A stretch of 64,000 bases of DNA from Gemmatimonadales bacterium (GCA_041741375.1 JBGSKF010000116.1:6784-70783), one strand, 5' to 3'. Shown: positions 7,337 through 63,594, numbered from the stretch's first letter. Numbers and translations: made by a program. The notes: generated by a model from the letters alone, not told the origin.

Positions 7337-7423
7337 CCCATTCGCCATTCCCCTTCTCCCTATTCCCCTACTCCCTATTCCCCTATTCCCCTATTCCCTA
7401 TTCCCTATTCCCTATTCCCTACC
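7337..7423 (-). repeat. Heptad array (GGGAATA/GGGGAATA/GGGAGTA)n, G-rich on the minus strand, abutting the gyrB stop
   Basis: Plus strand reads ccattcccc ttctccc tattcccc tactccc tattcccc tattcccc tattccc tattccc tattccc tattccc tacc. On the minus strand this follows the gyrB TGA (7424-7426) directly. Confidence 0.9.
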
Positions 7424-11721: not shown

Positions 11722-11835
11722 GGTGTAGGGGGTAGGGAGTCGGGAGTAGGGTGTAGGGAAGAGGAGAGAGGAAAGAGGAGTGAGAAGTGAGATCGATCTC
11801 CTCTCTCTCCTCACTCCTCTCCGCTCACTCCTCCA
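11722..11835 (+). repeat. G-heptad array followed by a purine-tract / pyrimidine-tract imperfect inverted repeat
   Basis: 11722-11760 reads ggtgtaGGGGgtaGGGagtcGGGagtaGGGtgtaGGGaa. 11761-11835 reads gaggagagaggaaagaggagtgagaagtgagatc|gatctcctctctctcctcactcctctccgctcactcctcc, centred on gatcgatc. It lies in the divergent gap between the crotonase and mtnA genes. Confidence 0.8.
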
Positions 11836-42918: not shown

Positions 42919-44189
42919 AACGCCGACAGTCAGTTCCCTTCCGTTCAAACCAGAGCAATTGCGGAGTCGCTCTTGTGACACTGGTCCTCATTGCCTGTGG
43001 CCCGGATGGCGCGAGGCACGAGGACCGCTCCAGTCCGCGTTCCCAGTTTGATAGCGAGATGGGGACTCTTGTGATCGAGAATTCAGCGCCTCTCTGGCGG
43101 CTTGGAGAGGAATGGCAGGTCGACACGGTTCCCACGGTGGCGATCGGGGCGGTGAGTGGCGGCCACGGCCCGGATCTCATGCGGGTGGGAGACATTGTCC
43201 CTCTGAGTGACGGCAGGATCGTTGTCCAGAACAGCGGGACCAGCGAGCTTCTCCTTTACGACTCCAGCGGCATGTTTCTTCAGGCGGTCGGCCGCCCCGG
43301 CCGAGGTCCCGGGGAACTGTCCGGCATGCTGCGCCTGTTCCGATGTGGTGGCGATACTTTGCTGGTAACAGAAGCGAACGCTATCAGTGTCTTCAGCCCA
43401 TCAGGGCACTTCGTTCGGAGCCATCGCGTTTCGTGGTCCCCAGGGTACGATCGTCACGAGATTGGAGGCGTCGCCGCGGACTGTTCCATAGGGCTCACCG
43501 TTTACCGGGAGCCGAGGGCTCCCGGCACGAGCGTGTACTACCACAGATACGTTTTCTCCCGGGAGTCGGGAACGCGCGCCAAATCGAATATCGGCTCGTT
43601 CGCCGGCCCGGATCTGGTCCCGCTCTCGGGGCCTTGGGCCATCAATCCTGTCCCCCAGCCCTTCGGCCGGGAGGATCTCTGGACGGTGACAGGGGATCAG
43701 ATGGTGATCGTGCCGAGCGACACGGCGGAACTGCGCACCTGGGGTGACGCCGGCAAACTCACTCGGGTCGTCCGATGGAATGCTCGTCCAGAGCCGGTGG
43801 GCGAGGCGGATCGCGAGCGATTCGCCAGAGAGAGTGAAGAGTTCCTCCGCCTGAATCCCGAGGAGGCTCCTCTTTTCCCTCCGCTGGAACAACTCTCGCC
43901 GCCGACCCACAAGCCCCTGTTTTCTCGTGTACTGGCGGATGACGAACAGACCCTCTGGATCCGCGAGTATCCGGTGTCCGCAGCGGGCCGCCCGTGGCTG
44001 CGCCGGCCCCGGGAGGGCGATCCCCCGGAGGAGTGGACCGTGATCGATTCGACGGGCCGCTGGCTCGGCGTGGTCCGGATTCCGGGCGGCGTGGAAGTCA
44101 AGGCGATCCAAGCGAGGCGCATCCTCGGAATCGCCCGCGATGCCGACGATGTGGAAGAGGTGAGGGTCTACCGGATAATCAGGGAATAG
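42915..44189 (+). CDS. Lipoprotein of the 6-bladed beta-propeller (TolB-like, GxGPGE motif) type
   Basis: ATGA overlap with the previous gene. Lipobox LVTLVLIAC. Motif GRPGRGPGELSGM. It is a paralog of 46731-47981 and shares its last 60 nt almost exactly. The stop TAG sits inside the heptad array. Confidence 0.7.
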   Translation: MKRRQSVPFRSNQSNCGVALVTLVLIACGPDGARHEDRSSPRSQFDSEMGTLVIENSAPLWRLGEEWQVDTVPTVAIGAVSGGHGPDLMRVGDIVPLSDGRIVVQNSGTSELLLYDSSGMFLQAVGRPGRGPGELSGMLRLFRCGGDTLLVTEANAISVFSPSGHFVRSHRVSWSPGYDRHEIGGVAADCSIGLTVYREPRAPGTSVYYHRYVFSRESGTRAKSNIGSFAGPDLVPLSGPWAINPVPQPFGREDLWTVTGDQMVIVPSDTAELRTWGDAGKLTRVVRWNARPEPVGEADRERFARESEEFLRLNPEEAPLFPPLEQLSPPTHKPLFSRVLADDEQTLWIREYPVSAAGRPWLRRPREGDPPEEWTVIDSTGRWLGVVRIPGGVEVKAIQARRILGIARDADDVEEVRVYRIIRE

Positions 44190-44231
44190 GGAGTAGGGAA
44201 TAGGTGGTAGGGGCCGTTCGCGAACGGCCCC
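44182..44231 (+). repeat. Composite element: G-heptads (GGGAATA GGGAGTA GGGAATA GGTGGTA) plus the perfect palindrome GGGGCCGTTCGCGAACGGCCCC
   Basis: Heptads run from 44182. The 22-nt palindrome lies at 44210-44231. Confidence 0.9.
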
Positions 44232-46730: not shown

Positions 46731-47981
46731 ATGCCGACGATCAGAATGATTCCATGCGAGCCCGGGCCCATCCTCCCGGCCCTCGCGGTGCTGGTGGCCT
46801 CGGCGTGCGGGGCACCGGAGGGAGGAGTCGGCACGCTAACCATCCTCGACAGTGCGGGGGTCACGATCGTGGACAACCGGACGCCCGAGTGGGCAGAGGG
46901 GGGCGGGTGGATTGTCGATTCGGTTCCCGATGTCGTGATCGGGGCGGCCGGACCCAAGGGGGAGCGGGACCTCCTGTACGTGCGTGATATCGTACGGATG
47001 ACGAACGGGGACCTGGTGGTGGCCAACGCAGGTCTGTCGGGGCTCGACCTGTTCGACTCCACCGGCCGGTTCCTGCGAACGATCGGCCGGGAGGGCCGAG
47101 GTCCCGGCGAGTTCAACTGGATGCTCAGGATGGTCAGGTGTGCGGAGGACACTGTGATGATCAACCAGGGGTACTACATCAGTGTCTTCGATTCGCGGGG
47201 CGCCTTCGTCGACGATCGGCGACCGTCCACTCCACCCGGCTCGAGCGCGAATCAGGTGTTCGGAAGCACCGCGGACTGTCGCGCGGCACTCATGGTGGCG
47301 TACGTACCCCAGTCACCACACCCGCCGGGCACAACCTACCAGCCCATGGTGTTGCTCTTCTGGGCGGGACTTGGAACCGGCGTGTGGGACACCGTGGCCG
47401 TGACCCCCGGTGCCCAACTTGTCTCCCTCGCGGCGCTGGGAGCGGTGTTCGGGATCGCGGTCCCGTTCGGGAGCTTGAGCATCTGGACCACCGACGGGGA
47501 TCACGTGTTTGTGGGGGTCACCGACCGTCCCGAAATCCGGATCCACGACCGGGATCGGGTGCTCGGGAAAGTTGTCCGCTGGCGTGCCGACGCGAGGCCG
47601 CTCGGCTCCGCCGATCGACAGGCCTACGACACCTGGAGGAAGGATTTCCTGGAACGAAACCCGGAGGAGCCCCCGGATCTGATCCCCCCCAGCGCCGACC
47701 TTCCCTGGCCGGACGCAAGACCGCTCTTCGCCGAGTTGCAGGTGGATGACGACGGGAACATCTGGGTCCGGAGCTTTCCCAATGCCCCTTCGGGCCGGGC
47801 TCGCCCGCATGTTCCCGGCCCGGAGAATCCCGCCGAGTCGTGGTGGGTCATTGATACGACGGGGCGGTGGCTCGGATCGGTGACCATGCCGCGCGGGCTG
47901 CAGGTCAAAAGCATTCAGGCGAGGCGCATCCTCGGCATTGCCCGCGATGCCGACGGGGTGGAAGAGGTGAGGGTCTACTGA
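46731..47981 (+). CDS. Lipoprotein of the 6-bladed beta-propeller type (high-GC paralog of 42915-44189)
   Basis: Lipobox ALAVLVASAC. Motif GREGRGPGEFNWM. The C-terminal IQARRILGIARDADGVEEVRVY is shared with the island paralog. Confidence 0.7.
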   Translation: MPTIRMIPCEPGPILPALAVLVASACGAPEGGVGTLTILDSAGVTIVDNRTPEWAEGGGWIVDSVPDVVIGAAGPKGERDLLYVRDIVRMTNGDLVVANAGLSGLDLFDSTGRFLRTIGREGRGPGEFNWMLRMVRCAEDTVMINQGYYISVFDSRGAFVDDRRPSTPPGSSANQVFGSTADCRAALMVAYVPQSPHPPGTTYQPMVLLFWAGLGTGVWDTVAVTPGAQLVSLAALGAVFGIAVPFGSLSIWTTDGDHVFVGVTDRPEIRIHDRDRVLGKVVRWRADARPLGSADRQAYDTWRKDFLERNPEEPPDLIPPSADLPWPDARPLFAELQVDDDGNIWVRSFPNAPSGRARPHVPGPENPAESWWVIDTTGRWLGSVTMPRGLQVKSIQARRILGIARDADGVEEVRVY

Positions 47982-47985
47982 ATGC

Positions 47986-48125
47986 TAGGGAGCAGGGAAT
48001 AGGGAGTAGGCGGTAGGGAATAGGGGCGACGCACTGCGTCGCCCGAGGCCTGGATGGTGGTCGTACGGGCCGTTCGCGAACGGCCCGTACAGCTTGCCTA
48101 CCTCCAATACCAGCCGCTGTGCGGG
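47986..48125 (+). repeat. Composite intergenic element: G-heptads, hairpin GGCGACGCA-c-TGCGTCGCC, and the 28-nt perfect palindrome GTACGGGCCGTTCGCGAACGGCCCGTAC
   Basis: Heptads at 47986-48026, first hairpin at 48024-48042, second palindrome at 48063-48090, tail ...ccagccgctgtgcgg. The same part order is seen at 44182-44300 and 59289-59440. Confidence 0.85.
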
Positions 48126-48247
48126 CTTGAGGTCCTCGTTGACGCGAAACTCGGCGGCCCGTACCGGCACCGCCGAGTTCCCGTTTCCTCATCTCGGGGC
48201 CGCATTCGCGACCCCTGCTCTCTACACCCTGCTTCCTCCTACACCAT

Positions 48248-48319
48248 GGGCGAACGCCGTTCGCCCCTACTCCCTACTCCCTACTCCCTACTCCCTACTC
48301 CCTACCGCCTACCGCCTAC
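48248..48319 (-). repeat. Composite element in minus orientation: G-heptads on the minus strand plus hairpin GGGCGAACG-c-CGTTCGCCC
   Basis: Plus strand reads gggcgaacgccgttcgccc (48248-48266), then (ctactcc)5 ctaccgc ctaccgc ctac (48267-48319). The minus-strand TAG stop of 48316-48936 lies inside the array. Confidence 0.85.
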
Positions 48320-48936
48320 TGACCCTGTCCCGGTGCGCCCGGCGACGCGAAGATCACCAGCCCTTGATTCTGGCATCCCGGCCCCGGATTTCTCTTGCAC
48401 GATGCGGCGAGGGTGCTGGTCTGAGCGGCCAGGAGGATTGGATCGGTCTCCGCCGGTCCGTGGCTCCGGAAGATGAAATGGACCTCCGCCTGAAACGGAT
48501 TGTCGATCCCGGACCGACCGGCGCCGCGAAGGGTTTCGCGGGAGTCATCGTGGCGCGCCAGACGGACCTCGAACGTTCCATTGGCGTTGGCCACGAATCC
48601 ACCGAAGTTTGACTGGGCACCCTCCACCAGGGGAAGATCAAGGTCATCCGCGTTGCATCCATCCACGCAGGCTCCCGGGTTCTCGAAGATGGCTGACCAG
48701 AGCGTGTATGCGTGACCCTCCACGAAATCGTCAGACTGGCCGGAGAGCGAGAGTCCCTCGGCGTGTCGAACCAGGGTGGCGGTCCCGGAGAAGAGACCCG
48801 TGAACCCCGGAGCCAGCCCGATGTTGGCGCTTTGGGTTACCTCCGCGCCACCCGGGTCTGCGAGCGACGATCCGTCGCAGGCGGCCAGCGGCAGGCCGAG
48901 GGCGATCAGAAAGAGTGTGGACGAAGTGCGAGACAT
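48316..48936 (-). CDS. Hypothetical lipoprotein
   Basis: Start at MSRTSSTLFLIALGLPLAAC (lipobox). No recognised domain. Confidence 0.5.
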   Translation of the reverse strand: MSRTSSTLFLIALGLPLAACDGSSLADPGGAEVTQSANIGLAPGFTGLFSGTATLVRHAEGLSLSGQSDDFVEGHAYTLWSAIFENPGACVDGCNADDLDLPLVEGAQSNFGGFVANANGTFEVRLARHDDSRETLRGAGRSGIDNPFQAEVHFIFRSHGPAETDPILLAAQTSTLAASCKRNPGPGCQNQGLVIFASPGAPGQGQ

Positions 48937-49148
48937 GCGAACCTCCCCTGGGTTGGGTTTCTGAGCGCAGGTACCCTTGCCGGACCGGGGCATTCCCGGT
49001 ACGATCCCGTATTGGCGAAATCTCAGTGCCGTTTAAGCGGGCGTGGCATTTCCCCTGCGCCCGCGTGGTGGGGGGCCCGTTGCCGTCCCCCTCTCAGAGA
49101 CGCGCACCCGGGGTTGGAACAACGCCATCCCTGGTCAGAGGAGGGGAG

Positions 49149-49763
49149 ATGACCGGACAGGCACCCCGCCCAGAGGACATCACCGGCGTGCTCGGGAGGG
49201 TCCGGAAGGGCGACCCCGAGGCGATGGGAGTTCTCATGCCCCGCGTCTACGACGAGCTTCGCCAGATCGCCCATCGTCACCTGCGTTCGGAGAGAGCCGG
49301 TCACACCCTCTCCACCACTGGTCTCGTCCATGAGGCCTACCTGCGGCTGGTGGATCAGCAACGGGTCGAATGGGTGGACCGCGCCCATTTCTTCGCCGTG
49401 GCCGCACGCATGATGCGTCGGATCCTGATCGACTACGCGCGCCGCCATCGTGCCCTGCGCCGGGGCGGGCCCCACCACCAGGTGATTTCTCTCGATGCCG
49501 CTGAGGTGCAGAATTCCGCCCTAGCCGAGAACGACCCGGAGATCGTTGCACGGGCGGAGTGGCTGCTTTCGCTGGATGAGGCGCTCGACCGGCTCAAGGA
49601 CGCGAATGAGCGCCAGGCCCGGATCGTCGAGTGTCGGTTTTTCGGCGGGCTGACCGAGCACGAAACGGCCGCGGCGCTCGGGGTGTCCCAGCGCACGGTG
49701 TCGCGCGAGTGGAGCCTGGCGCGGGGATGGCTTTATCGGGAGTTGCGGCGTGACGTCGCCTGA
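49149..49763 (+). CDS. ECF-type RNA polymerase sigma factor (the subfamily usually paired with Ser/Thr kinases)
   Basis: DITGVLGRVRKGDPEAMGVLMPRVYDELRQIAHRHLRSERAGHTLSTTGLVHEAYLRLV...WVDRAHFFAVAARMMRRILIDYAR, plus a sigma-4 HTH (LTEHETAAALGVSQRTVSREW). Confidence 0.85.
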   Translation: MTGQAPRPEDITGVLGRVRKGDPEAMGVLMPRVYDELRQIAHRHLRSERAGHTLSTTGLVHEAYLRLVDQQRVEWVDRAHFFAVAARMMRRILIDYARRHRALRRGGPHHQVISLDAAEVQNSALAENDPEIVARAEWLLSLDEALDRLKDANERQARIVECRFFGGLTEHETAAALGVSQRTVSREWSLARGWLYRELRRDVA

Positions 49764-52440
49764 CCGTCCTGGCTCCGAGCAGGGAGCCCTGGTGCAACGG
49801 CTGGTCGCGCGGGCGCTCGACCTCCCGGTCGAGGAGCGCGGGGCCTACCTCGCCGAGGCCTGCGCGGGAGACAGCCCACTGCGGAACGAGGTCGACACCT
49901 GGGTGCGGGCCTGTACGGCGAGCGGGGAGGAGGGGTTTCTCGACGGATGCGCGGCGGAACACGCGGCCCCCCTGCTCGAGCAGGTGGAGCGGTGGGAGAC
50001 GGGGGACGGAGATCGGCAGATTGCCCTGGCCACCCTCACGTCCCTCCTGTCCGACCGGTATGAGATCGATCGCGAGGTGGGACGGGGAGGCTCGGCGACG
50101 GTATTCCTGGCGCACGACCGCCGGCACGATCGTGCGGTGGCGATCAAGGTTCTGGATCCCCGCCTCGCCGCATCGGCCTCGGCCAGCCGGTTTCTGCGGG
50201 AAATCAGGCTCGCGGCCCGAATGACTCACCCGAACATCCTTCCGCTCCACGATTCCGGCGATGCGGGAGGCCTCCTCTACTACGTGATGCCGTACGTCGA
50301 GGGGGAATCCCTCCGCGCACGGCTGACCCGGCAGGGTCCGTTCCCCGTGCCCGAGGCCCTGGGCCTGCTCCGGGAAGTGATCGGCGCGCTCGCCCATGCC
50401 CATCGGCAGGGGATCGTGCACCGAGACGTCAAGCCGGAGAACATCCTCCTGCTGGATGGCCATGCGGTCGTGGCCGACTTCGGGATCGCCCAGGCCCTGG
50501 ACACCGCGCTCGGGCAGGAAGGGGAGGTCGAGGGCCCGGAGTTGGGACGGGTCGCGACGGAGACCCGGGAGAGCACCGTGATCGGAACTCCCGCCTACAT
50601 GGCGCCGGAGCGGATGACACCCGGGTGGACCACGGATGTCCGTGCCGATCTCTATTCTCTCGGCGTGGTGGCCTACGAAATGCTCGGCGGAACCAACCCG
50701 TTCACGGCCGAGACGCAGGAAGCGACCGCGTCTGCCCAGCGGGAGAGGGTCCCTGCTCCCCTGCGCGCCGCTCGTCCCGATCTTCCCCCGGACATCGAGA
50801 ACCTGGTGATGGCCCTGCTCGCCAAGGATCCGGCGGACCGACCGCCGAGCGCCGAGGCGGTGCTGGAACGCCTGGAACGGGGGATGGCTCGGGCTGCTCT
50901 GTCCGGGGGGGTGGCGCGGAGCCGCCGGTGGCCGTCCCTGGTGGGCATGGGGGCATTGGCTGTGCTGGCCGGAGGCGTCCTGACCGTCGTGCTGTTCCCG
51001 CGCGCCGTGGCCCCGGTGTCGGATCGCAGGATCGCCGTCCGGGTGTGTGAGAACAGGGGGACCGGAGGAGACCTGGCCCTGGCCCAGGCGCTGACCCAGG
51101 AAATCACCGGGAAACTGCGTGGGATCGCCGGACTCAGGGTGATCGGGCAGGAGAGCATGCGGCGCTACGAGGGGAGGGCCACGCCGGCCACGACCATCGG
51201 GGGGGACCTGGGCGTCGACTATGTGCTCGGCTGCACCGTGGAGTGGACCCGGCGCGAGGACGGGGAGGCCCTGGTGCGGGTCCGGTCGGAGCTTCAGCGG
51301 GCCGGCGACAACACGGTGCTCTGGACCCTGGCGCCCGATCCCCAGCCGGTCGGGGACATCATCGCCTTGCAGGCCACCGTGGCCGACCGGGTGCTCGACG
51401 AACTTCGGATAGGGTCGACGGAGGCGCAACGTCAGGCGCGAAGGCGTTCTCCGACAGTGAGCCTGGCAGCGTATCAACACTACCTGACCGGACTCGCACG
51501 AGTGGCCCTCACCACCCAGGCGGCTCGGGAGGAGGGGCTCCGGTCGTTCGAGCGTGCGATCGCGCTGGATTCCTCCTTCGCACTCGCCTGGGCCGGTCTG
51601 GGGCTTGCCTGGCTTCACCTCCCCCCCTTCTGGGACCGTCACGACTCGACCGGGAACCTCGCGCCGAACAGCCTCGAAGCCTATCGGCGGGCGGAGGAGG
51701 CAGCAGGTCAGGCGCTGCGACTCGACCCCACGCTGGTGGAGGCCCGTGTCGTGCTGGAGTCGGCCCGATTCTATATCTCGTGGGACTACCGTGCTGCCGT
51801 CGCGTCGCTGGACAGGTTGACCCTTCAAGCCCCGGATGACCTTTACGCCCAGCAGCGTTACCGGATGGCCCTGGTCGCGGCGGGCCGGTTTCCTGAAGCC
51901 CTCGCCGTGTCGCGCCGGGCGATCGATCTCGACCCTCTGCACCCGGTCACGAATACTTTTCTGGCTGTTGACCTCGCCCGGATGGGAGAGACCGAAGAGG
52001 CGATCGCGATTCTCCGGCGGGTGGTGGGATGGAACCCCGATTTTGCCCAGGCGTTCATGGTGCTGGGAACCCTGCAACTCCAGGCCGGGGCGCGCGGCGC
52101 GGGCGCCGACACCGCCACCCGGTTCCTGACGCTGCGCGGCTACCCCGCGTCGGCCACCGACAAGGTCCGGCGCGCCCTGGCGGGTACCGGCCCGGTGTCG
52201 GAGGCCATCGAGGTGCTCGACGACCTGCAACGCGGTATCTGGGAACCCGAGGGTCGTCTTGCCGGGTATTACGCCCTGCTCGGGGAGCGGGGCCGAGCGC
52301 TGGCGCTCCTGGAGCGAGCCAAACGGCAGCACGTGGGCGAACTTCTCTTTCACCGATCGATGCCGTTCTTCGTGTCCCTGAGAGGAGATCCGCGGTTCGA
52401 GGCGACCTGGGAGGAGCCTCTGCCCGGGAGTGGGGAGTAG
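49750..52440 (+). CDS. Ser/Thr protein kinase with a TM helix and C-terminal TPR-rich extracytoplasmic region
   Basis: GTG start overlaps the sigma gene by 14 nt. Kinase motifs VAIKVL, HRDVKPENILL, DFGIA and GTPAYMAPE. TM helix WPSLVGMGALAVLAGGVLTVVLF, followed by TPR-like repeats. Confidence 0.85.
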   Translation: MTSPDRPGSEQGALVQRLVARALDLPVEERGAYLAEACAGDSPLRNEVDTWVRACTASGEEGFLDGCAAEHAAPLLEQVERWETGDGDRQIALATLTSLLSDRYEIDREVGRGGSATVFLAHDRRHDRAVAIKVLDPRLAASASASRFLREIRLAARMTHPNILPLHDSGDAGGLLYYVMPYVEGESLRARLTRQGPFPVPEALGLLREVIGALAHAHRQGIVHRDVKPENILLLDGHAVVADFGIAQALDTALGQEGEVEGPELGRVATETRESTVIGTPAYMAPERMTPGWTTDVRADLYSLGVVAYEMLGGTNPFTAETQEATASAQRERVPAPLRAARPDLPPDIENLVMALLAKDPADRPPSAEAVLERLERGMARAALSGGVARSRRWPSLVGMGALAVLAGGVLTVVLFPRAVAPVSDRRIAVRVCENRGTGGDLALAQALTQEITGKLRGIAGLRVIGQESMRRYEGRATPATTIGGDLGVDYVLGCTVEWTRREDGEALVRVRSELQRAGDNTVLWTLAPDPQPVGDIIALQATVADRVLDELRIGSTEAQRQARRRSPTVSLAAYQHYLTGLARVALTTQAAREEGLRSFERAIALDSSFALAWAGLGLAWLHLPPFWDRHDSTGNLAPNSLEAYRRAEEAAGQALRLDPTLVEARVVLESARFYISWDYRAAVASLDRLTLQAPDDLYAQQRYRMALVAAGRFPEALAVSRRAIDLDPLHPVTNTFLAVDLARMGETEEAIAILRRVVGWNPDFAQAFMVLGTLQLQAGARGAGADTATRFLTLRGYPASATDKVRRALAGTGPVSEAIEVLDDLQRGIWEPEGRLAGYYALLGERGRALALLERAKRQHVGELLFHRSMPFFVSLRGDPRFEATWEEPLPGSGE

Positions 52441-52579
52441 GAGGAGGGAGACGGCGGACCGCGTCGACCTCCGCTTGACAACCGACCCGCAGCGGTGCCC
52501 TTTACTGTTTCCGTAAGCAAGAGTCCTGTCCGGGAATCGCCCCGCGATCCCGGGTCCGCCATTCGACCCGAGCCGCTTC

Positions 52580-53962
52580 GTGACCGCTCCGCTGCCCGCA
52601 GCTGTGGGCCTCTGGGAATCCGAACTGTGGGACGAGTTGCTCGCCAACCTCGACGAGCGGCGCGTCATCCCCATTGTGGGTCCGGATCTCCTCGAGGTGG
52701 AGACGCCGACCGGTCCTGCCCGCCTGGAAACGTGGTTGGCCGCACAGTTGGCGGAGCGGGTCGGACTGCACGATCTGCCCGCCCCACGCACGCTCAATGA
52801 GGTGGTCTGCGCCCACCTGCGCCGGGGACAGCGCCGGGAGGCGCTCTACCCCCGTCTCAAGACGATCTTCCAGGAGGCGGCCATCACCCCGCCGCCGGTC
52901 CTGCGAAAGCTCGCCGAGATCGCCCATTTCGACCTGTTCGTCACCACCACGTTCGACCCCCTGCTCGAGGAGGCCCTGAATGCCGTCCGATTCAGCGGGG
53001 AACAGCGAACGGAGACCATGGCCTACTCCACACGCGAGGCGCACGACCTGGCGGTGCCGAAGCGCGACCTCCGGGCCCCGCTGGTCTACCACCTCTTCGG
53101 CCGACTCTCGGCGTCTCCCTCCTATGTCCTGTCCGAGGAGGACCTGCTCGAATTCATCTTCGCCCTGCAATCCCCGGCCCGGGCGCCGGAGCGACTGTTC
53201 GATGAACTGGAGCGCAACCACCTGCTGCTTCTCGGGGTGAATTTCGCTGACTGGTTTGCCCGGATGTTTCTCCGCACCGCGAAGGGACACCGCCTGTCGG
53301 AGGCCCGCGAGGTGCTGGAGATCCTGGCCGACTCCCGCACGCCGGGCGAGCAGGGGCTGGTCACCTTCCTGGCGCATTTCAGCAGCCGCACACGGGTGTT
53401 CCAGGGGACCGCCGTCCAGTTCGTGGACGAACTCCACCGCCGGTACCGGGAACTCCACCCCGCGGAGGAGACCGGTCCCGGGCTCGCGTACCACGACGAG
53501 ATGCGCCCGGGGTCGGTCTTCCTGAGTTATGCCAGCGAGGACCGGCGGGCGGTGGAGCGCCTCAAGGCGGGGCTCGAGGCGAGCGGGATTCCAGTCTGGT
53601 TCGACCGGGATCAGCTCAAGGCCGGTGATCACTGGCGTGATCTGCTGCGGCACAACATCGATCAGTGCAGTCTTTTCATCCCCGTGCTCTCCGCCACCAC
53701 CGAGCGCAAGATCGAGGGCGAGTTCCGTCGCGAGTGGCGCTGGGCTCTCGATCGCGAGCAGCGGATGGCCGGAGGGCGGGTGTTCATTCTCCCCGTCGTG
53801 ATCGACGAGACCGAGACCTTCACAACCGCCGAGCGACGTTTTCTCGAACTTCACATCGCCCGGGTACCCGGAGGGGAGGTCTCCCCGGATTTCGGCGACC
53901 GGGTCCGGCACATTCTGGAGCGGGTCGCACCGGCGGCGGAGGGGAGGAGGGGGGCGCCATGA
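52580..53962 (+). CDS. Fusion protein: degenerate SIR2-like (SIR2_2-type) N-terminal domain plus C-terminal TIR domain
   Basis: SIR2_2-like motif order: VIPIVGPDLL; LFVTTTFDPLLEEAL; VYHLFGR...YVLSEEDLLEF; HLLLLGVNFADW. TIR motifs: VFLSYASEDRRAVERLKAGLEASGIPVWFDRDQLKAGDHW...CSLFIPVLS...EGEFRREW. GTG start. The stop overlaps the next start (ATGA). Confidence 0.75.
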   Translation: MTAPLPAAVGLWESELWDELLANLDERRVIPIVGPDLLEVETPTGPARLETWLAAQLAERVGLHDLPAPRTLNEVVCAHLRRGQRREALYPRLKTIFQEAAITPPPVLRKLAEIAHFDLFVTTTFDPLLEEALNAVRFSGEQRTETMAYSTREAHDLAVPKRDLRAPLVYHLFGRLSASPSYVLSEEDLLEFIFALQSPARAPERLFDELERNHLLLLGVNFADWFARMFLRTAKGHRLSEAREVLEILADSRTPGEQGLVTFLAHFSSRTRVFQGTAVQFVDELHRRYRELHPAEETGPGLAYHDEMRPGSVFLSYASEDRRAVERLKAGLEASGIPVWFDRDQLKAGDHWRDLLRHNIDQCSLFIPVLSATTERKIEGEFRREWRWALDREQRMAGGRVFILPVVIDETETFTTAERRFLELHIARVPGGEVSPDFGDRVRHILERVAPAAEGRRGAP

Positions 53963-56900
53963 CCCCGCGAGCGTCCCCCGTCCCGGCGGGGCGGGAAGAT
54001 CCCGTCGACACCGCCAATCCCTGGCCGGGGCTGGCCGCATTCCGTGAGGGAGCCCACGCCTTCTTCCACGGGCGCGCGGCCGAGATCGAGGATCTCGAAC
54101 GCCGGGTGCGCCGGAAACCCCTCACCGTCCTTTATGGCCAATCGGGACTGGGCAAGACCTCCCTGCTGCAGGCGGGGCTCTTTCCCCGGCTCCGCGCCGA
54201 GGGGTTCCTTCCGGTTCCCCTGCGGCTGGATTATGCCGCGGCCGCAGAGGATCCGGCCGCCCAGATCAGGCACGCCCTGGCGGAGGCGTTTCGGTCCGCC
54301 GGCCTCGATGCGGGCAACCGGTTTGTCGAGGGCTCGGTCTGGGAATGCTTCCACCGCCTCGAGGAGGAGGGAGAGGGGGAGACGTCCGCGCGCCCGGTCC
54401 CGGTGCTGGTGTTCGACCAGTTCGAGGAACTGTTCACCGTGGGCCGGGGCCCGAGCGAGTCGCAATCCCGGGGCGATCTCGTGGTCGAGGAGCTTGCCTC
54501 TCTCATCGAGAACCGTCCTCCCCGTGCCCTCGAGGCCCGCTTCGAGAGCCACCCCGGCCTGGTGGAGCGGTTCGACTTCGAGCGACAGGACTACCGGGTT
54601 CTCCTGAGCCTGCGGGAGGATTATCTCCCCCATCTGCACGACCTCCGGGGGAAGATCCCCTCCATCACCCTGAACAGCATGCGGCTCGGCCGGATGGATG
54701 GGGAGCGGGCTCTCCAGGCCGTTCTGCGGCCCGGGGCGGACCTGGTGGCGCTGCCCGTGGCCCAGGCCCTCGTCCGGTTCGTGGCGGGGACCCCGGAAGC
54801 TCGGAGGACCGGTCATGCGGCCTCCAGCGCGGGGGCCGAATTCCGCGCCCTGGAGGTGGAGCCGGCCCTGCTCAGTCTCTTCTGCCGCGAACTCAACCAG
54901 AAGAGAATCGCCCGGGGCGACGCCGAGATCTCCCTCGACCTGGTGCGGGGTAGCCGGGAGGCGATTCTCCAGGAGTTCTACGAGGGGTGTTTTGCCGACC
55001 AGCCTCCGGCGGTCCGCGCCTTCGTGGAGGAGGAGCTCCTCACCGAGTCGGGGTTTAGGGAGAGTCTCACCCGGGAGCGGGCCGAGCAGGAACTGTCCCG
55101 CCGCGGCGCCCGGCCCGGGGCTCTCGATGTGCTCATCAACCGGCGTCTCCTGCAGGTGGAGGAACGGCTCCGGGTGCAGCGTGTGGAGCTCACCCACGAC
55201 GTCCTGGCGGAGGTGGCGCGCCAGAGCCGGGTCGGCCGCCGGCATCAGGAGGCCCTGGAGGAGGCGGAGCGTCAGGCGGGCCAGGCGCGAGAACTGAGCC
55301 GCCGGGCCCGCCGCCGCTCCCTGCTGATCGGAGCGACCGCCCTCGGCATCGGGGGACTGCTGGCCCTGGGTGGTCTGGTTGCGATCCGGCAGAGTCGACT
55401 TGCCCGGGAGGCAAGCGTGAAGGCGCAGGTGGCGGAGAGTCTGGCTGTGCAGCGGGCCGAGGATGTGACACGGTTGAACCGTGGCCTCGTGGACAGCGCA
55501 GCGATTCTGTCCAACCAGAGGGACGAACTGGGCCGTCAGGCGGCGGCCGTGGCTGCGGCGCTTCGCCAGCAGGAGATGCTTCGGCGTGATGCCGAATCGA
55601 ATGCCGCCCAGGCCCGGGATCTCGGTGCGGCTGCCGCGCGGCGGCTGGAACAGATCTGTGACTACAGCCTGGCCCTCGCCTCCGCGCTCTCGGCGGAAGT
55701 CAACTCCCAGCAGCTTCCCGATTCGCGCAGTGGCGAGGACGGCGGAGGAGGGGCGGCCGCCTCCGAGGTGTTCCAGGAGTATCTGCAAACCACGAACCGG
55801 CATTTCGACAGCCTCTATGTCCAGGACTCCTCCGCCGCCTGTGTCCGCCAGATGCGGGCCCGGATCAAGGTCATTGCGGCCGGCGCGGCCCAGGAACGGA
55901 ACCGACGGCAGGAGATCCTGCGGTGGAGCCGGGAGGGGCTCGGAGCGGTGCAGGCGCTGCGCGACCTGGATGACGCGGGGTCACGGCATCTGGCCCAGAT
56001 CCTCTACACCGACCTGGCCTACTACCTCTGGCTCGTGGACGACACGACCAATGCGCAATCCGCCGCCGTGGAGGGCATCACCGTTTCCCGGGTTCTGGAT
56101 GCCCGAGACAATCGCAACACGCTTTTCCGTCACGCACGGCTCCACCAGATGTACGGCAACGTCTGGATCGACCGGAAGGAGTATGCCCGCGCCCGTGAGG
56201 AAGTCCTGGCCGGGCTTCGAATCGCCGACAGCGGCCTCCGCCGCGCCGATCAGGATTCCCTTTCTCTCCTCCTTGCCCGGAGCCAGCTGTCCCTCCGGCT
56301 CGGAGCGTTGGATACCCTGGCCGGTGCCCATGAAACCGCCGCCCAGCATTACGCCGAGGCGGTGGCGAGTGCCGAAGCGCGTGTGTCCCACCGTCGAACG
56401 CGGGCCACGGTGGAGTGGTTGGGCCGAACCCAGGAATGGCTTGGAAACCTTTCCCGGAGCCTCGGCCGGTACGACGCGGCTCGGACGGCGTGGGCGAATG
56501 CGGCCCGCACGCTGCAGGACACGATTCTCCCGGTCGCCACAGCCCTTCCGCACCTGGAGCGCATCCAGCGATCGGCCATCCGCCTGGAACTGGCGGCGGC
56601 GGACACGGGACGGGCGCTGGAGCAACTGAGGCTCCGGCTCCGCCTGGACTCGGCTCGCGTACGCCAGACCCGCGGCCTCCCGGCGGCCCTGGATACCCTC
56701 GCCAACGCGCTCACCCTGATGGGCAGTGTGGCCCAGGCATCCCGCCGGTTCGATCTGGCCATCCGGGCCCGCGCGGAGCTGATCGGTGTTCGCCGTGATC
56801 TTCTCCGCTTCGAGGGTCGCACGGCTCGGTCCAATCTCGCCATCGCACTGGGGAACTCCGCCTGGAGCAGGCTCTTCGGCAGGGAGGGGGAAGAGGCTGT

Positions 56901-57207
56901 GAAGGAGGCGATCGAGGGCCTGGTCGTGGATTCATCCCAGACCTACATCTACACCAACCTGGCCCACGGACTCCTCCAGAGCGGCCGGGCGCGTGAAGCC
57001 GAGCAGGTGTACCGGGGGTGCAGTGCGGTGCGGTATGGGAATCCGCCGTCTCACTTCGCTGAGGTGGCGCGTCAGGATCTGCGCGAACTCCTGGCCGCCG
57101 GGGCGGTGGACCAGCACCAGGTGGATCGAGCCGAGGACTGGCTCGCCGGCCCGCGGGGAGAATGCGCGGTGCCGGAAGCCCTCACCATGACCGCTCGGAC
57201 CCGGTGA
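53959..57207 (+). CDS. STAND-class P-loop NTPase with a mid-protein TM helix and a C-terminal helical/TPR-like region
   Basis: NPWPGLAAFREGAHAFFHGRAAEIEDLERRV, then Walker A GQSGLGKTS and Walker B VLVFDQFEELF. The helical/winged-helix end is VELTHDVLAEV. A basic stretch precedes TM helix SLLIGATALGIGGLLALGGLVAI, followed by coiled coil and about 450 aa of helical repeats. Confidence 0.75.
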   Translation: MTPRASPVPAGREDPVDTANPWPGLAAFREGAHAFFHGRAAEIEDLERRVRRKPLTVLYGQSGLGKTSLLQAGLFPRLRAEGFLPVPLRLDYAAAAEDPAAQIRHALAEAFRSAGLDAGNRFVEGSVWECFHRLEEEGEGETSARPVPVLVFDQFEELFTVGRGPSESQSRGDLVVEELASLIENRPPRALEARFESHPGLVERFDFERQDYRVLLSLREDYLPHLHDLRGKIPSITLNSMRLGRMDGERALQAVLRPGADLVALPVAQALVRFVAGTPEARRTGHAASSAGAEFRALEVEPALLSLFCRELNQKRIARGDAEISLDLVRGSREAILQEFYEGCFADQPPAVRAFVEEELLTESGFRESLTRERAEQELSRRGARPGALDVLINRRLLQVEERLRVQRVELTHDVLAEVARQSRVGRRHQEALEEAERQAGQARELSRRARRRSLLIGATALGIGGLLALGGLVAIRQSRLAREASVKAQVAESLAVQRAEDVTRLNRGLVDSAAILSNQRDELGRQAAAVAAALRQQEMLRRDAESNAAQARDLGAAAARRLEQICDYSLALASALSAEVNSQQLPDSRSGEDGGGGAAASEVFQEYLQTTNRHFDSLYVQDSSAACVRQMRARIKVIAAGAAQERNRRQEILRWSREGLGAVQALRDLDDAGSRHLAQILYTDLAYYLWLVDDTTNAQSAAVEGITVSRVLDARDNRNTLFRHARLHQMYGNVWIDRKEYARAREEVLAGLRIADSGLRRADQDSLSLLLARSQLSLRLGALDTLAGAHETAAQHYAEAVASAEARVSHRRTRATVEWLGRTQEWLGNLSRSLGRYDAARTAWANAARTLQDTILPVATALPHLERIQRSAIRLELAAADTGRALEQLRLRLRLDSARVRQTRGLPAALDTLANALTLMGSVAQASRRFDLAIRARAELIGVRRDLLRFEGRTARSNLAIALGNSAWSRLFGREGEEAVKEAIEGLVVDSSQTYIYTNLAHGLLQSGRAREAEQVYRGCSAVRYGNPPSHFAEVARQDLRELLAAGAVDQHQVDRAEDWLAGPRGECAVPEALTMTARTR

Positions 57208-57566
57208 GTCTCGCACGGTCGCGCCTGCCGACCGAATTCAGGACGATCTGGTTGTGCCGGCCCGTGAGCAGGACACCTGGCACCGGTGCTGTTTCCACAA
57301 CTCCGGAGAATCGCCTCGGGCTGGTTCCCATACGTTCTGGTCCTGGCGGGGGGGCAGGGGAGGAGGAGTGGGCTCGGTGCCACCACAGGCAACGGTCAAG
57401 CCCGCATTGTAGCACGAATCAACGGTAGGAGAAAGTCGCGATGGCCACCTCCGGCCTCGGGGGGATATCGTGAAGAGTTGGCGCCATTCATGGGGCACCG
57501 CGCCGCGCCCGGGCTTCAATCCGGGCGAACAAGACGTTGCGACACTCAGGCTCCAGATTGGTGCAG

Positions 57567-58126
57567 TCAGACCGGGGCGAACAAGGTCTCAAGGTCCAAA
57601 GTAAACGCGGTTCGGGCACCTGCGGGGTGCCACCGGAGTGCATCGTGAACGACCACCGGTTTCGTGGCACCGGCTGTCCAGCACTCCACTCGATGGGCAA
57701 TGGGGTCGACCACCCAGTAGAGCGGAACCCCTGCCTCCTGATACAACCGTCGCTTGGCTCCCCGGTCTCCCCGGTGACTCCCGGGCGAGAGAACCTCCGC
57801 CACCAGCAGGAGAGTCTGCACCCGCCGCCAGTCGAGCGTCCTGATCTCGTCCCACGGTGCCACGAAGACGTCGGGTTGCACCAAGGAGTCCGGCCCCCAG
57901 GAGATGTCGCCGGGGACGCGAGCACCATGCCCACCGGTGCGGTGGTGAGATACCGTGTGAGCGCATCCGCTAGTCGGACCACCACGATCTGATGCCAGAG
58001 CGAGGGCGCCGGGGTCACGACCAGCTCCCCGTGGGCTGTTTCGTACCGGGACCCGTCCGGAGGCAGGCCGAGGACCATCTCGGCGGTCCAGAACTCGCGG
58101 CGTGGGGACAAGGCAGGCATGCCCAT
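57567..58126 (-). pseudogene. Uma2-family endonuclease gene disrupted by a 1-nt deletion (frameshift)
   Basis: The N-terminal half (MGMPALSPRREFWTAEMVLGLPPDGSRYETAHGELVVTPAP...) is in the frame of track ORF 57488-58294. The C-terminal half (DISWGPDSLVQPDVFVAP...LYWVVDP...) is in the frame of ORF 57567-58190. My manual alignment to 45845-46405 gives 91 versus 92 nt across 57901-57991. Confidence 0.7.
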
Positions 58127-58629
58127 ACGTTCGTCTCGGCGGTGGAGGTTGCGCAAGGGGGGGGGAGAAAAAGTGGTGGCGCATACCCAAGAATCACCGG
58201 TATCGGCGGGATCGGGGCACCGTTTCGGCTCAGCGGTGACCCGGAAAATGCGTGGCGGTATCAGAGAGTGGGGAATCGGTGAGGGCGGCGCCAACGGCAG
58301 CGAGTCCGTGGGGGCGACCTCTGTGTGTTCTCGGGGTCACCGAGAAAGCACCTGCTCACGCGGAGACGCGGAGACGCGGAGGGGAGTGCGTGGCCGCGAT
58401 TCTGGGAAACTCCGGTGCATGAGAAATGGGTGGCCCCACCCCCCACCAGTGATACTCGCCACTGCTCCCGGTTCCAGGAAGCGGTATTCCACCTCCGCGG
58501 CTCCGCGTGGGAACATTCCGGATCCCGGCCCGGTGCGATTGCCACAGGGCGGACGCGTGAGGACAGCTTGACCAACTTGACCAACAGGGCCGCCCCGCGG
58601 TACCTTCTCAGGCAATCGGAGGTGCCATC

Positions 58630-58887
58630 ATGAAGAAGCACGCGGTACGGGAATCAGTGAACCTCTACGAAGCCAAGACTCACCTCAGCGCCCTGGTCGA
58701 ACGGGCCGCGGCAGGAGAGGAAATCGTCATCGCCAAGGCGGGACGGCCCAAGGCGCTGCTGGTGCCACTCGCGGACCCTGGAGTGCGCCGAGTGTCGGGT
58801 CGGGGCCGGGGGCGGTGGCGGGTGGCGCGGGACTTCGACGCGCCGTTGCCCCCGGACATTCTTGATCGCTTCGAGGGACGGGAGTGA
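58630..58887 (+). CDS. Type II antitoxin, Phd/YefM family
   Basis: VNLYEAKTHLSALVERAAAGEEIVIAKAGRPKALLVPL. GTGA overlap with the PIN toxin gene. Confidence 0.75.
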   Translation: MKKHAVRESVNLYEAKTHLSALVERAAAGEEIVIAKAGRPKALLVPLADPGVRRVSGRGRGRWRVARDFDAPLPPDILDRFEGRE

Positions 58888-59255
58888 ACCTCCTCCTGGA
58901 TACCCATGTGCTCATCTGGTGGGACGAGGGAACTCGGCTCTCCCGGGACGCCCGGTCCGCGATCCGTGGTGCGGACCAGGTGTTCGTGAGCGCCGTCTCC
59001 GCCTGGGAGGTCGCGATCAAGACGGCGCTCGGCAAGCTCCGGCCCAGCCGCACGGTGGCCGAAGCCGTGGAGGAGTCGGGGTTCGAGGAACTCCCCGTGT
59101 CGTTTACCCATGCGGCCCTCCTCGCCACGCTTCCGCCGAACCATCGGGATCCATTCGATCGGATGCTGGTTGCCCAGGCCCGATGCGAAGGTCTCGTCCT
59201 GGTGACGCGGGATCCCGTCTTCCACTGCTACGACCTTCCGGTGCTGAAGGCCTGA
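58884..59255 (+). CDS. vapC: Type II toxin, PIN-domain ribonuclease VapC
   Basis: LLLDTHVLIWW, SAVSAWEVAIK, HRDPFDRMLVAQA and LVTRD: the acidic PIN quartet context. Confidence 0.85.
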   Translation: MNLLLDTHVLIWWDEGTRLSRDARSAIRGADQVFVSAVSAWEVAIKTALGKLRPSRTVAEAVEESGFEELPVSFTHAALLATLPPNHRDPFDRMLVAQARCEGLVLVTRDPVFHCYDLPVLKA

Positions 59256-59264
59256 CGGCAGGGC

Positions 59265-59440
59265 GATGTAGAAAAGGTGAGGGTCTACCGGGTGAAGGGA
59301 GTAGGGGGTAGGGAGTAGGGAATAGGGGCGGGGCGCAGCGTCGCCCGAGGCCAGGATGTTCCCGGTACGGTAGGGAATAGGCGATAGGGACCAGGGGGTA
59401 GGGGATCGGGGCTGCTCGCGAACGGCCCCTACCGCCTGTC
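59265..59440 (+). repeat. Orphan copy of the propeller-gene 3' module plus G-heptads and degenerate hairpins
   Basis: gatgtagaaaaggtgagggtctac (59265-59288) matches the last codons of 42915-44189 at 22 of 24 nt. Then heptads at 59296-59330, ...gcgcagcgtcgcccgaggccaggatg, heptads at 59369-59408, and ggggctgctcgcgaacggcccc (59409-59430). Confidence 0.8.
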
Positions 59441-59544
59441 TATGCCCGCCTGCACCCTGCCGTCCGGACGCCAGGTCGGTCGTCGAACGGGGAGTGGAGG
59501 ACGCAGCCGACGGGAAGTGCACCGACCCGTCTCCATAGATCCCT

Positions 59545-59643
59545 CGCTTTGCGCGCGGGATGACGATCAACCAGGTATTCCCAGGTCCCTACTCCCTACT
59601 CCCTACTCCCTACTCCCTACTCCCTGTCGTCCGCCTACCGCCC
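59545..59643 (-). repeat. Minus-oriented palindromic unit plus G-heptad array upstream of the DPP-IV gene
   Basis: Plus strand reads gatccctcgctttgcgcgcgggatgacg, followed by (ccctact)5-like cctactccctactccctactccctactccctactccctgtcgtccgcctaccgcc. Confidence 0.8.
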
Positions 59644-59706
59644 GCCGCCTTCCCACCATACAATTCCAAGGTACCCGTGCCGGTTCACCCTCAACCCGGT
59701 TTCCTC

Positions 59707-63276: not shown

Positions 63277-63525
63277 ATGGAAGGCGTGCTCGCAATCATC
63301 TTCATCTTCGGCGGCGGAACGCTGTTCCTGCTGTCGGTGAGCCCTGTCGGGAAGGCCTTTGCTGAACGGTTGCGGGGGCATCCCTCCGCGACCCAAGACC
63401 CCGAGGTTCTCGACGAACTGCATCAGCTCCGCCAGGACGTGGTTGAGCTGCAGGAGCGGGTGGATTTCGCGGAGCGGTTGCTCTCCGATGGACGGCGAGA
63501 AGCGGGGGCGGGGAATAGGGAGTAG
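63277..63525 (+). CDS. Small TM + coiled-coil protein, member 4
   Basis: VLAIIFIFGGGTLFLLSVSPVGKAFAERLRG...LRQDVVELQERVDFAERLLSD. The stop TAG (63523-63525) lies inside a GGGAATAGGGAGTAGGGAG array. Confidence 0.55.
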   Translation: MEGVLAIIFIFGGGTLFLLSVSPVGKAFAERLRGHPSATQDPEVLDELHQLRQDVVELQERVDFAERLLSDGRREAGAGNRE

Positions 63526-63594
63526 GGAGCGGGGAATAGGGGGTTGGCGGTTGGGACCGCAGACGGAACGTCACCCCGGCGAACGCCGGGGTCC
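63508..63594 (+). repeat. G-heptads plus the cgtcaCCCCGGCGaaCGCCGGGGtcc palindromic unit
   Basis: gcggggaatagggagtagggagcggggaatagggggttggcggttggg, then acgtcaccccggcgaacgccggggtcc (63568-63594). The latter unit also heads the A units at 39369 and 39518. Confidence 0.8.

Follow-up and report, generated by a model that had tools for sequence, protein, structure and literature searches.

A coupled gene pair and its domains

Two overlapping genes occupy positions 52580 to 57207 of a 64,000-nucleotide stretch of DNA from a Gemmatimonadales bacterium (GCA_041741375.1 JBGSKF010000116.1:6784-70783), referred to here as the window. Gene 1 encodes a SIR2-like/TIR protein and gene 2 encodes a membrane STAND NTPase. 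An original prediction, drawn from the sequence alone, had proposed the pair as a candidate defence or conflict system made of a STAND sensor and a TIR effector. The features of the pair are as follows.

52580..53962, + strand: gene 1, an open reading frame (ORF) with a GTG start, 460 amino acids (aa); cytoplasmic protein, SIR2-like plus TIR
52619..53473, + strand: SIR2-like (pseudo-enzyme) domain, aa 14-298; strands 29-33, 119-122 and 168-171 in the AlphaFold2 (AF2) model, and Foldseek
53504..53926, + strand: TIR domain (TIR_2), aa 309-449; candidate Glu E385 at 53732-53734 and invariant A389 at 53744-53746
53945..53962, + strand: coupling junction, with an AGGAGG Shine-Dalgarno sequence (53945-53950), an 8-nt spacer and an ATGA stop/start overlap (53959-53962)
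53959..57207, + strand: gene 2, an ORF with an ATG start, 1082 aa; single-pass membrane STAND NTPase
54007..55212, + strand: nSTAND1 NTPase module, aa 17-418; N-terminal PWPGLxxF box, hhGRExE-type motif, Walker A and B motifs, winged-helix end
54136-54162, + strand: Walker A motif, GQSGLGKTS
54403-54429, + strand: Walker B motif, VLVFDQFEE
55300..55386, + strand: basic RRARRRS and a single transmembrane helix (aa 455-476; Kyte-Doolittle 2.0)
55414..55713, + strand: continuous helix of ~100 residues (aa 486-585), predicted extracytoplasmic stalk or coiled coil (AF2)
55744..57144, + strand: TPR-like superhelix (aa 596-1062), predicted extracytoplasmic sensor (AF2; predicted local distance difference test score, pLDDT, mostly >90)

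Both ORFs and the ATGA overlap are present in the sequence where the original prediction had placed them, and independent gene callers picked the same two starts in identical public contigs. Every motif quoted in that prediction was likewise located in the two proteins. The SIR2-like half of gene 1 carries GPDLL (aa 34-38, for GAGxS), TTTFD (122-126, for TTNYD) and HLFG (171-174; YHLFG, for xLHG), and the TIR half carries VFLSYASEDR (313-322), WFD (340-342), FIPVLS (366-371) and EGEFRREW (379-386). Gene 2 carries NPWPGLAAF (20-28), FFHGR (35-39, within FFHGRAAEIE), GQSGLGKTS (60-68), VLVFDQFEE (149-157) and RRARRRS (448-454). A scan of 52300-57700 for promoters and terminators gave nothing informative.

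A Pfam search returned the three proposed domains, each above its cut-off: SIR2_2 (PF13289) in gene 1 at aa 119-240 (49.4 bits, E 6.5e-13; cut-off 24.5), TIR_2 (PF13676) in gene 1 at aa 313-412 (73.9 bits, E 2e-20; cut-off 28) and nSTAND1 (PF20703) in gene 2 at aa 21-418 (110.8 bits; cut-off 27.1). PADLOC and NCBIfam models run on both proteins produced matches at the level of the TIR domain only, none above a system-specific threshold; the pair matches no named system, as had been supposed.

In the AF2 model of gene 1 (pLDDT 79.5), a SIR2-type Rossmann domain precedes a TIR fold. Foldseek matched this model to ThsA over its whole length, to the SIR2 domains of Avs5, KomC, DSR2 and SPARSA and to the SPARTA TIR, with a target-normalised template-modelling score of ~0.6 against isolated SIR2 chains. 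By sequence the SIR2-like half had no match in the PDB, even at E<=10, and its link to ThsA, DSR2 and Avs5 comes from the fold search only. The TIR half matched the AbTIR, PdTIR, BtpA, SPARTA and SARM1 TIRs in the PDB by sequence (phmmer/hmmsearch), and residues 313-449 follow the predicted beta-alpha pattern of a TIR domain, with helix alphaC at 381-395 in the AF2 model. The TIR fold is certain. Hydropathy gave no hydrophobic segment in gene 1.

Gene 2 is a STAND NTPase, as predicted, with its nSTAND1 match and intact Walker motifs; the residues of GQSGLGKTS, VLVFDQFEE and FFHGRAAEIE do not vary across 17 aligned sequences. In the AF2 model of gene 2 (pLDDT 75) the NTPase and winged helix extend to ~aa 411, and a long helix (414-460) leads into the hydrophobic segment. 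The coiled coil and the roughly 450 residues of helical repeats described earlier correspond in the model to the helix at 486-585 and an alpha-solenoid at 596-1062. Foldseek related the solenoid to the TPR superhelices of LGN, OGT and SPY and to the STAND-TPR protein 6mfv.

A conserved core and a divergent, predicted outer domain

Gene 1 belongs to a large family of ~460-aa SIR2_2 plus TIR_2 proteins, with at least 900 cluster representatives at 50% identity (E<=1e-30). In all 74 loci that could be tested, which were genome and metagenome loci with at least 400 bp downstream, the gene-1 homologue is immediately followed by a gene for an nSTAND1 NTPase. The 4-base overlap (ATGA or GTGA) is kept at 46 of 67 homologous junctions, and most of the others are a few bases apart. 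Starting from gene 2, a SIR2-TIR gene was found directly upstream of six of the seven relatives examined, including those with FGE/lectin-fold, WD40 and 1200-aa TPR-array tails. Furthermore, the divergence of the SIR2-like domain and that of the NTPase are correlated across pairs (r=0.95), and in one Rosetta-stone protein (P0314) nSTAND1, SIR2_2 and TIR_2 occur in a single chain with the cassette after the NTPase. The linkage, the overlaps and the correlated divergence support the proposal of a translationally coupled pair and show it to be strictly co-conserved.

The pair is widespread in soil bacteria. Relatives occur in Casimicrobiaceae and other Betaproteobacteria, Lysobacter, Opitutus, Gemmatimonadales and deltaproteobacterial metagenome-assembled genomes (MAGs); a scan of genome contigs with a single protein query gave 8 loci. 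Another listed SIR2_2 plus nSTAND1 protein, P0138, was not accepted as a fusion, as its NTPase-SIR2-TIR-NTPase order suggests a chimeric or frameshifted gene call; P0314 is the credible fusion. P0138 and an apparent NTPase frameshift in a long-read MAG locus (L010:7404-8595) are probably assembly or gene-calling artefacts or tandem duplication.

In ThsA and DSR2, the catalytic Asn (TTNYD) and His (xLHG) are needed for NADase (nicotinamide adenine dinucleotide, NAD, cleaving) activity. The Asn site, position 124, is Thr in the window protein, and Asn is found there in only 5 of 142 family representatives. The His site, position 173, is F, L or M in all 142 and never His, and the nearby H171 is not invariant. 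The glycine-rich loop reads IP(I/V)xGPxL in the family (IVGPDLL in the window), in which G34 is invariant and the second Gly and the Ser are missing throughout. The domain is nevertheless strongly constrained: median pairwise identity is 70% for the SIR2-like domain, 69% for the TIR and 70% for the NTPase, compared with 25% for the region after the membrane helix. The description of a dead SIR2 fold is therefore upheld and applies family-wide. Because the SIR2-like domain evolves slowly, and because it is kept together with the TIR across fusion partners, we read it as a pseudo-enzyme. A reasonable reading of these patterns is that it may serve in docking or as an adaptor, as a scaffold, in oligomerisation, in regulation or in ligand sensing.

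Among the 120 closest homologues of gene 2, 116 have a single strong hydrophobic helix after the NTPase (aa 430-525), regardless of the type of C-terminal domain; among 46 complete partner proteins of gene-1 homologues, 42 have it too. Its N-terminal flank carries a charge of +3 to +6 in most sequences and its C-terminal flank 0 to +3 (one at -3), with the N-terminal side the more positive in 35 of 38. An ATPase has to be cytoplasmic. Because there is one helix with a positive-inside bias next to a cytoplasmic ATPase, the stalk and repeat domain are predicted to be extracytoplasmic. The protein had been called membrane-anchored; the membrane helix is confirmed, but that term understates the case, as a single helix with this charge pattern points to a predicted transmembrane receptor and not to an anchored cytosolic sensor.

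The outer domain also stands apart in its rate of change. Its median pairwise identity is 45% even where the two SIR2-like domains compared share more than 80%, and in relatives the TPR domain of the window gives way to WD40 domains, FGE/lectin-fold domains or longer TPR arrays. This is the signature expected of a diversifying sensor on a frozen signalling core. Conserved cysteines in the alignment had been considered as possible disulfides of the outer domain; this idea was dropped, as most relatives have no cysteines there.

A distant pair is present in a cultured organism, Paraburkholderia caribensis MBA4, on a 2.55-Mb replicon (NZ_CP012748.1, ~378058-381000; L101:8001-11344), with 31% and 36% identity to the two window proteins. 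The SIR2 domain of its gene 1 is also degenerate (GSQL, TMTCD, YMFG). Its NTPase and transmembrane helix are followed by a short, unrelated C-terminal domain of ~170 aa, and the region is without annotation in the PLSDB table. Other arrangements of the cassette include bDLD3, a bacterial Death-like domain that acts as an adaptor in known STAND conflict systems, between SIR2 and TIR (P0300), a vWA-like N-terminal region (P0349) and an additional N-terminal TIR on the SIR2-like plus TIR cassette (P0345 and P0309).

A proposed outside-in module and its rivals

The reading that we prefer, at a probability of roughly 55%, is that the pair forms an outside-in signalling or conflict module in which a membrane STAND switch activates a TIR partner. 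Gene 2 would be a bitopic inner-membrane protein, with its ATPase switch in the cytoplasm and its helical stalk and hypervariable TPR superhelix in the periplasm. Binding of a putative ligand by the outer domain would be relayed through the stalk and membrane helix, and the NTPase thereby released would exchange nucleotide and oligomerise like other STANDs. We infer that gene 1, supplied at a fixed ratio through translational coupling, would dock on the NTPase, probably through its dead but conserved SIR2-like domain. The NTPase oligomers would then gather the TIR domains into active sites, and cleavage of NAD+ would lead either to depletion and growth arrest or to an ADP-ribose-derived signal. 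Plant resistosomes of the TIR-type nucleotide-binding leucine-rich repeat (TNL) class, in which STAND oligomerisation activates TIR NADases, provide a precedent. The fold of gene 1, which resembles the NAD-consuming defence proteins ThsA, Avs5, DSR2 and KomC and the SPARTA TIR, similarly favours an effector-like cassette. Relative to the original picture of a sensor plus effector, the coupled pair, the dead SIR2 fold as a possible adaptor and the STAND NTPase are retained, and the intact TIR, the simple anchoring and the defence label are not. The observations that weigh against the outside-in reading concern the TIR active site, the placement of the outer domain, and the genomic and literature context.

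Cleavage of NAD+ by TIR domains requires a catalytic Glu on helix alphaC (W-x-x-x-E). From the alignment and the model, E385 is the candidate for this residue in gene 1. It is found in 139 of the 142 representatives (W386 in 136, A389 in 138), with an aromatic residue at -4 in 123 of 142 and Ala at +4, and with alphaC starting at 381 this corresponds to the canonical aromatic-x-x-x-Glu-hydrophobic arrangement. Additionally, the N-terminal half of the domain (F-I-S-Y-A-x-E-D, WFD and the GD loop) is closely like that of NADase-active bacterial TIRs. Hidden Markov model (HMM) alignments to AbTIR and PdTIR, however, place FRREW opposite FKK[ED]W and set the invariant Ala389 on the catalytic Glu. 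Comparisons by hhalign with a SARM1 TIR sequence and with the extra N-terminal TIR of P0345 did not fix the register, because the alignments either did not reach alphaC or hinged on the EW dipeptide. D391 was rejected as the catalytic residue, as many members have R, K or A at this position. The TIR domain had been described as apparently intact; its fold is beyond doubt, but intactness does not follow while the position of the catalytic Glu is ambiguous between E385 and A389. We put the odds that the TIR domain of gene 1 is active at somewhat better than even.

The same ambiguity bears on an alternative in which both enzyme-like domains of gene 1 are inactive and the protein is purely a scaffold or adaptor, much like the TIR adaptors of animals, linking the membrane STAND to unlinked partners such as other TIR proteins with a transmembrane helix and TPRs. 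The register that sets Ala389 at the catalytic Glu and the family-wide loss of SIR2 catalytic residues are consistent with this, as are three loci (L007, L033 and L051) that carry 1-4 extra genes of this kind with a TIR of the same subclade. It is made improbable by the near-invariance of E385 and its placement as the canonical Glu at the start of alphaC, by the resemblance of the N-terminal half to active TIRs, and by the absence of an extra TIR gene near most loci.

The placement of the repeat domain outside the cytoplasm, which we regard as most likely, comes solely from hydropathy and charge bias. If the TPR domain instead faced the cytoplasm, the pair could be a classical cytosolic sensor of phage proteins, merely tethered to the membrane, in the manner of Avs proteins. 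The logic of effector, STAND and TPR is indeed shared with Avs and with bacterial NLR-like (nucleotide-binding leucine-rich repeat receptor-like) proteins, the SIR2 fold is like that of Avs5, and toxin-antitoxin and Uma2 genes adjoin the pair in the window. A single helix, however, sets the NTPase and the TPR domain on opposite sides of the membrane with the ATPase in the cytoplasm, and the positive-inside bias of the 35 sequences noted above points the same way. Furthermore, no PADLOC Avs model matched, and other loci have no defence neighbours. We consider such a tethered sensor very improbable.

The context of the pair lends no support to the defence label that it had been given. Flanking genes vary between loci, and the neighbours in 18 further loci (107 ORFs) and in 8 Pfam-annotated ones are housekeeping or signalling genes, among them kinases, response regulators and cyclases. 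PADLOC run on the 107 neighbouring ORFs returned generic Ser/Thr kinases only, and a scan of viral contigs (IMG/VR) for relatives found none. An immune role is thus unsupported by context, with the caveat for this guilt-by-association result that soil lineages are poorly covered in defence catalogues. Additionally, one close gene-2 relative (P0227) has no SIR2-TIR partner, and our search of the literature on SIR2-TIR fusions, TPR-S and periplasmic STAND-TIR proteins found no description of, or experiment on, the pair.

These neighbours, and the absence of defence islands or viral-contig copies, fit an alternative in which the module performs non-immune transmembrane signalling: the periplasmic TPR domain would sense a small molecule, a peptide or an envelope cue, and the TIR would make an NAD-derived messenger without killing. 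In some lineages this messenger may feed a neighbouring protein with TPR-S and cyclase domains and signalling through cyclic nucleotide monophosphates (cNMP) and Crp. A gene for such a TPR-S-cyclase protein abuts the pair in ~22 loci (9 of the 30 with both flanks), and one of the loci (L105) has an adjacent Crp/cNMP-binding regulator. The bitopic architecture is also like that of PknB-type receptor kinases, such as the product of the gene directly upstream in the window, which likewise combine a cytoplasmic enzymatic module, one helix and a periplasmic TPR sensor; in the pair, the output is a STAND NTPase with a TIR partner and not a kinase. Against this alternative, an outer domain that diverges to an extreme degree and is swapped wholesale, on a frozen cytoplasmic core, is seen more typically in receptors of a conflict or arms race than in metabolite sensors, and the pairing of the cassette with a Death-like adaptor or a vWA-like domain in other proteins likewise recalls conflict systems. 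Moreover, a conserved downstream receiver is missing in the window and in ~70% of loci. We regard non-immune signalling as less likely than the outside-in reading; together with the fully non-catalytic scaffold it is one of the main rivals.

The outside-in module can be compared with several known systems. The nSTAND1 clade was named by Kaur et al. (eLife 2021 PMC8195603) as one of the NTPases of predicted STAND (nSTAND1/NACHT/MNS)-FGS and EAD/Death-like-coupled conflict systems, with TIR among the effectors. Predicted STAND conflict systems also appear in Kaur, Burroughs, Iyer and Aravind (eLife 2020 PMC7159879), where transmembrane helices followed by an extracellular PBP domain are reported for EACC1 systems; like that of the pair, the status of these systems is purely computational. 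The pair shares with them the nSTAND1 clade, a variable C-terminal sensor (including an FGE/lectin-fold form at L019) and TIR effectors, and the gene-1 relative P0300 carries bDLD3. In those systems the NTPase either carries the effector in the same chain or recruits it by means of matching EAD or Death-like domains on both proteins, whereas here a constant pseudo-SIR2-TIR partner is made from an overlapping gene. Pfam places an EAD or bDLD in neither window protein, and only 20 residues precede the NTPase. The passages of the two papers that we consulted describe neither a SIR2-TIR partner nor this single-helix, sensor-outside topology. A study of diversity-generating retroelements (DGR) predicted periplasmic sensor domains for a few STAND targets.

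Avs/AVAST proteins (including the SIR2-STAND protein Avs5) and bacterial NLR-like proteins similarly combine an effector, a STAND switch and a repeat sensor, and the SIR2_2-type fold of gene 1 resembles the Avs5 SIR2 (Foldseek E ~1e-8). An Avs protein, in contrast, is a single cytosolic polypeptide with an active effector that senses phage proteins inside the cell. The pair differs in having a separate effector protein, a dead SIR2, an added TIR, a helix between NTPase and TPR domain, and a sensor predicted to lie across the membrane.

Type I Thoeris (ThsA, SIR2-SLOG, and ThsB, TIR) has the SIR2 and TIR folds in common with gene 1, which aligns with ThsA over its full length because the SIR2 of ThsA also precedes a Rossmann-like domain. 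Thoeris has its TIR on a separate protein, where it acts as sensor and generates the signal, and SLOG gates the SIR2, which is the active NADase. In the pair, a single chain contains the two folds, its SIR2 has neither the Asn nor the His, SLOG and Macro domains are missing, and the STAND NTPase is obligatory. ThsB models gave only weak matches (PADLOC, E 0.0017-0.05), no ThsA model matched, and the NCBIfam Thoeris match had E 0.17.

Two eukaryotic systems offer analogies only. Plant TNL resistosomes also join a STAND switch to a TIR, but are cytosolic single chains. Animal Toll-like receptors (TLRs) also have an extracytoplasmic repeat sensor, one helix and a cytoplasmic TIR, but lack an NTPase. 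There is no evidence of homology of the whole architecture with either. Compared with known STAND and TIR systems, the pair is distinctive in its split, constant effector with a dead SIR2, its transmembrane topology and its lack of a defence-island context.

To our knowledge, the bacterial STAND/NLR-like immune sensors characterised so far recognise targets within the cell. If the outside-in reading is correct, the STAND paradigm would extend to surveillance of the envelope or exterior, with phage adsorption or injection, bacteriocins, neighbouring cells and envelope damage as possible targets. The module would then be a bacterial counterpart of the Toll-like logic of an extracellular repeat sensor, a membrane helix and a TIR. 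The obligatory pseudo-SIR2-TIR cassette offers a clear example of an inactive enzyme kept under strong selection, and could reveal how the activity of TIR domains is gated. Because the system is a compact one of two genes, and because a distant pair is present in the cultured strain MBA4, these hypotheses are directly testable. A broader proposal is that a very large family of bacterial single-pass STAND receptors monitors the periplasm or exterior by means of hypervariable TPR, WD40 or lectin-fold domains and signals inward through a dedicated pseudo-SIR2-TIR protein. This would amount to a TLR-like pathway built on an NLR-type switch, wired in some lineages to the TPR-S-cyclase so that NAD-derived and cyclic-nucleotide signalling are coupled. 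We offer it tentatively, as an idea with somewhat less than even odds.

Neighbouring genes and repeats

In the window, the pair lies between an extracytoplasmic function (ECF) sigma factor/Ser-Thr kinase-TPR gene pair upstream and a convergent Uma2 gene, which is followed by Phd-PIN genes. The downstream neighbours are as follows.

57567-58190, - strand: Uma2 gene
58630-59255: Phd/YefM antitoxin and PIN toxin

The ECF sigma factor gene (48915-49763) overlaps the start of the gene for a Ser/Thr kinase with a transmembrane helix and TPRs (49750-52440), which is directly upstream of the pair and encodes a second bitopic TPR receptor at the locus. The neighbourhood had been described as accessory-like. 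One Uma2 copy, the Phd-PIN toxin-antitoxin genes and the heptamer repeats are indeed there, but Uma2, Phd-PIN, the sigma factor and the kinase are not conserved with the pair elsewhere.

The heptamer repeats form two elements of ~370 bp in the same orientation (47958-48330 and 59268-59650), each consisting of inverted arrays: (AGGGAGT)n, then ~240 bp, then (ACTCCCT)n. They bracket an 11.3-kb segment that contains the sigma factor, kinase, SIR2-TIR, nSTAND1, Uma2 and Phd-PIN genes. Single arrays are found at 7389-7423, 11724-11758, 44178-44212 and 63514-63541, and the heptamer has 27 matches in the window versus 0 expected. The elements may be either the borders of a mobile segment or a genome-wide intergenic repeat.

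The TPR-S-cyclase protein of other loci is 610-700 aa long and is not encoded in the window. It consists of TPR-S (PF20308), an unannotated middle domain with an apparently SLOG-like motif, SAACGADLILIEAAL, and a class III cyclase; the middle domain had no match in the PDB or Pfam. Its gene is found in three arrangements relative to the pair, namely downstream on the same strand, upstream and divergent, and upstream on the same strand, with examples at L008:12682-14538, L014:3871-5700(-), L102:450-2543 and L105:607-2517(-). It may act as a third, optional component, connecting the output of the TIR with cNMP signalling.

The extra genes mentioned above encode a TIR of the same subclade (F-R-[RL]-E-W-x-x-A) with a membrane helix and periplasmic-type TPRs (IAVLPFxNxS motif). 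Examples are found at L007 (3158-5539, 5543-7864 and 15551-17404), L033 (four hits) and L051 (4922-5215). In Opitutus-like and other genomes these genes are grouped around the pair, and their architecture recalls that of Toll-like receptors.

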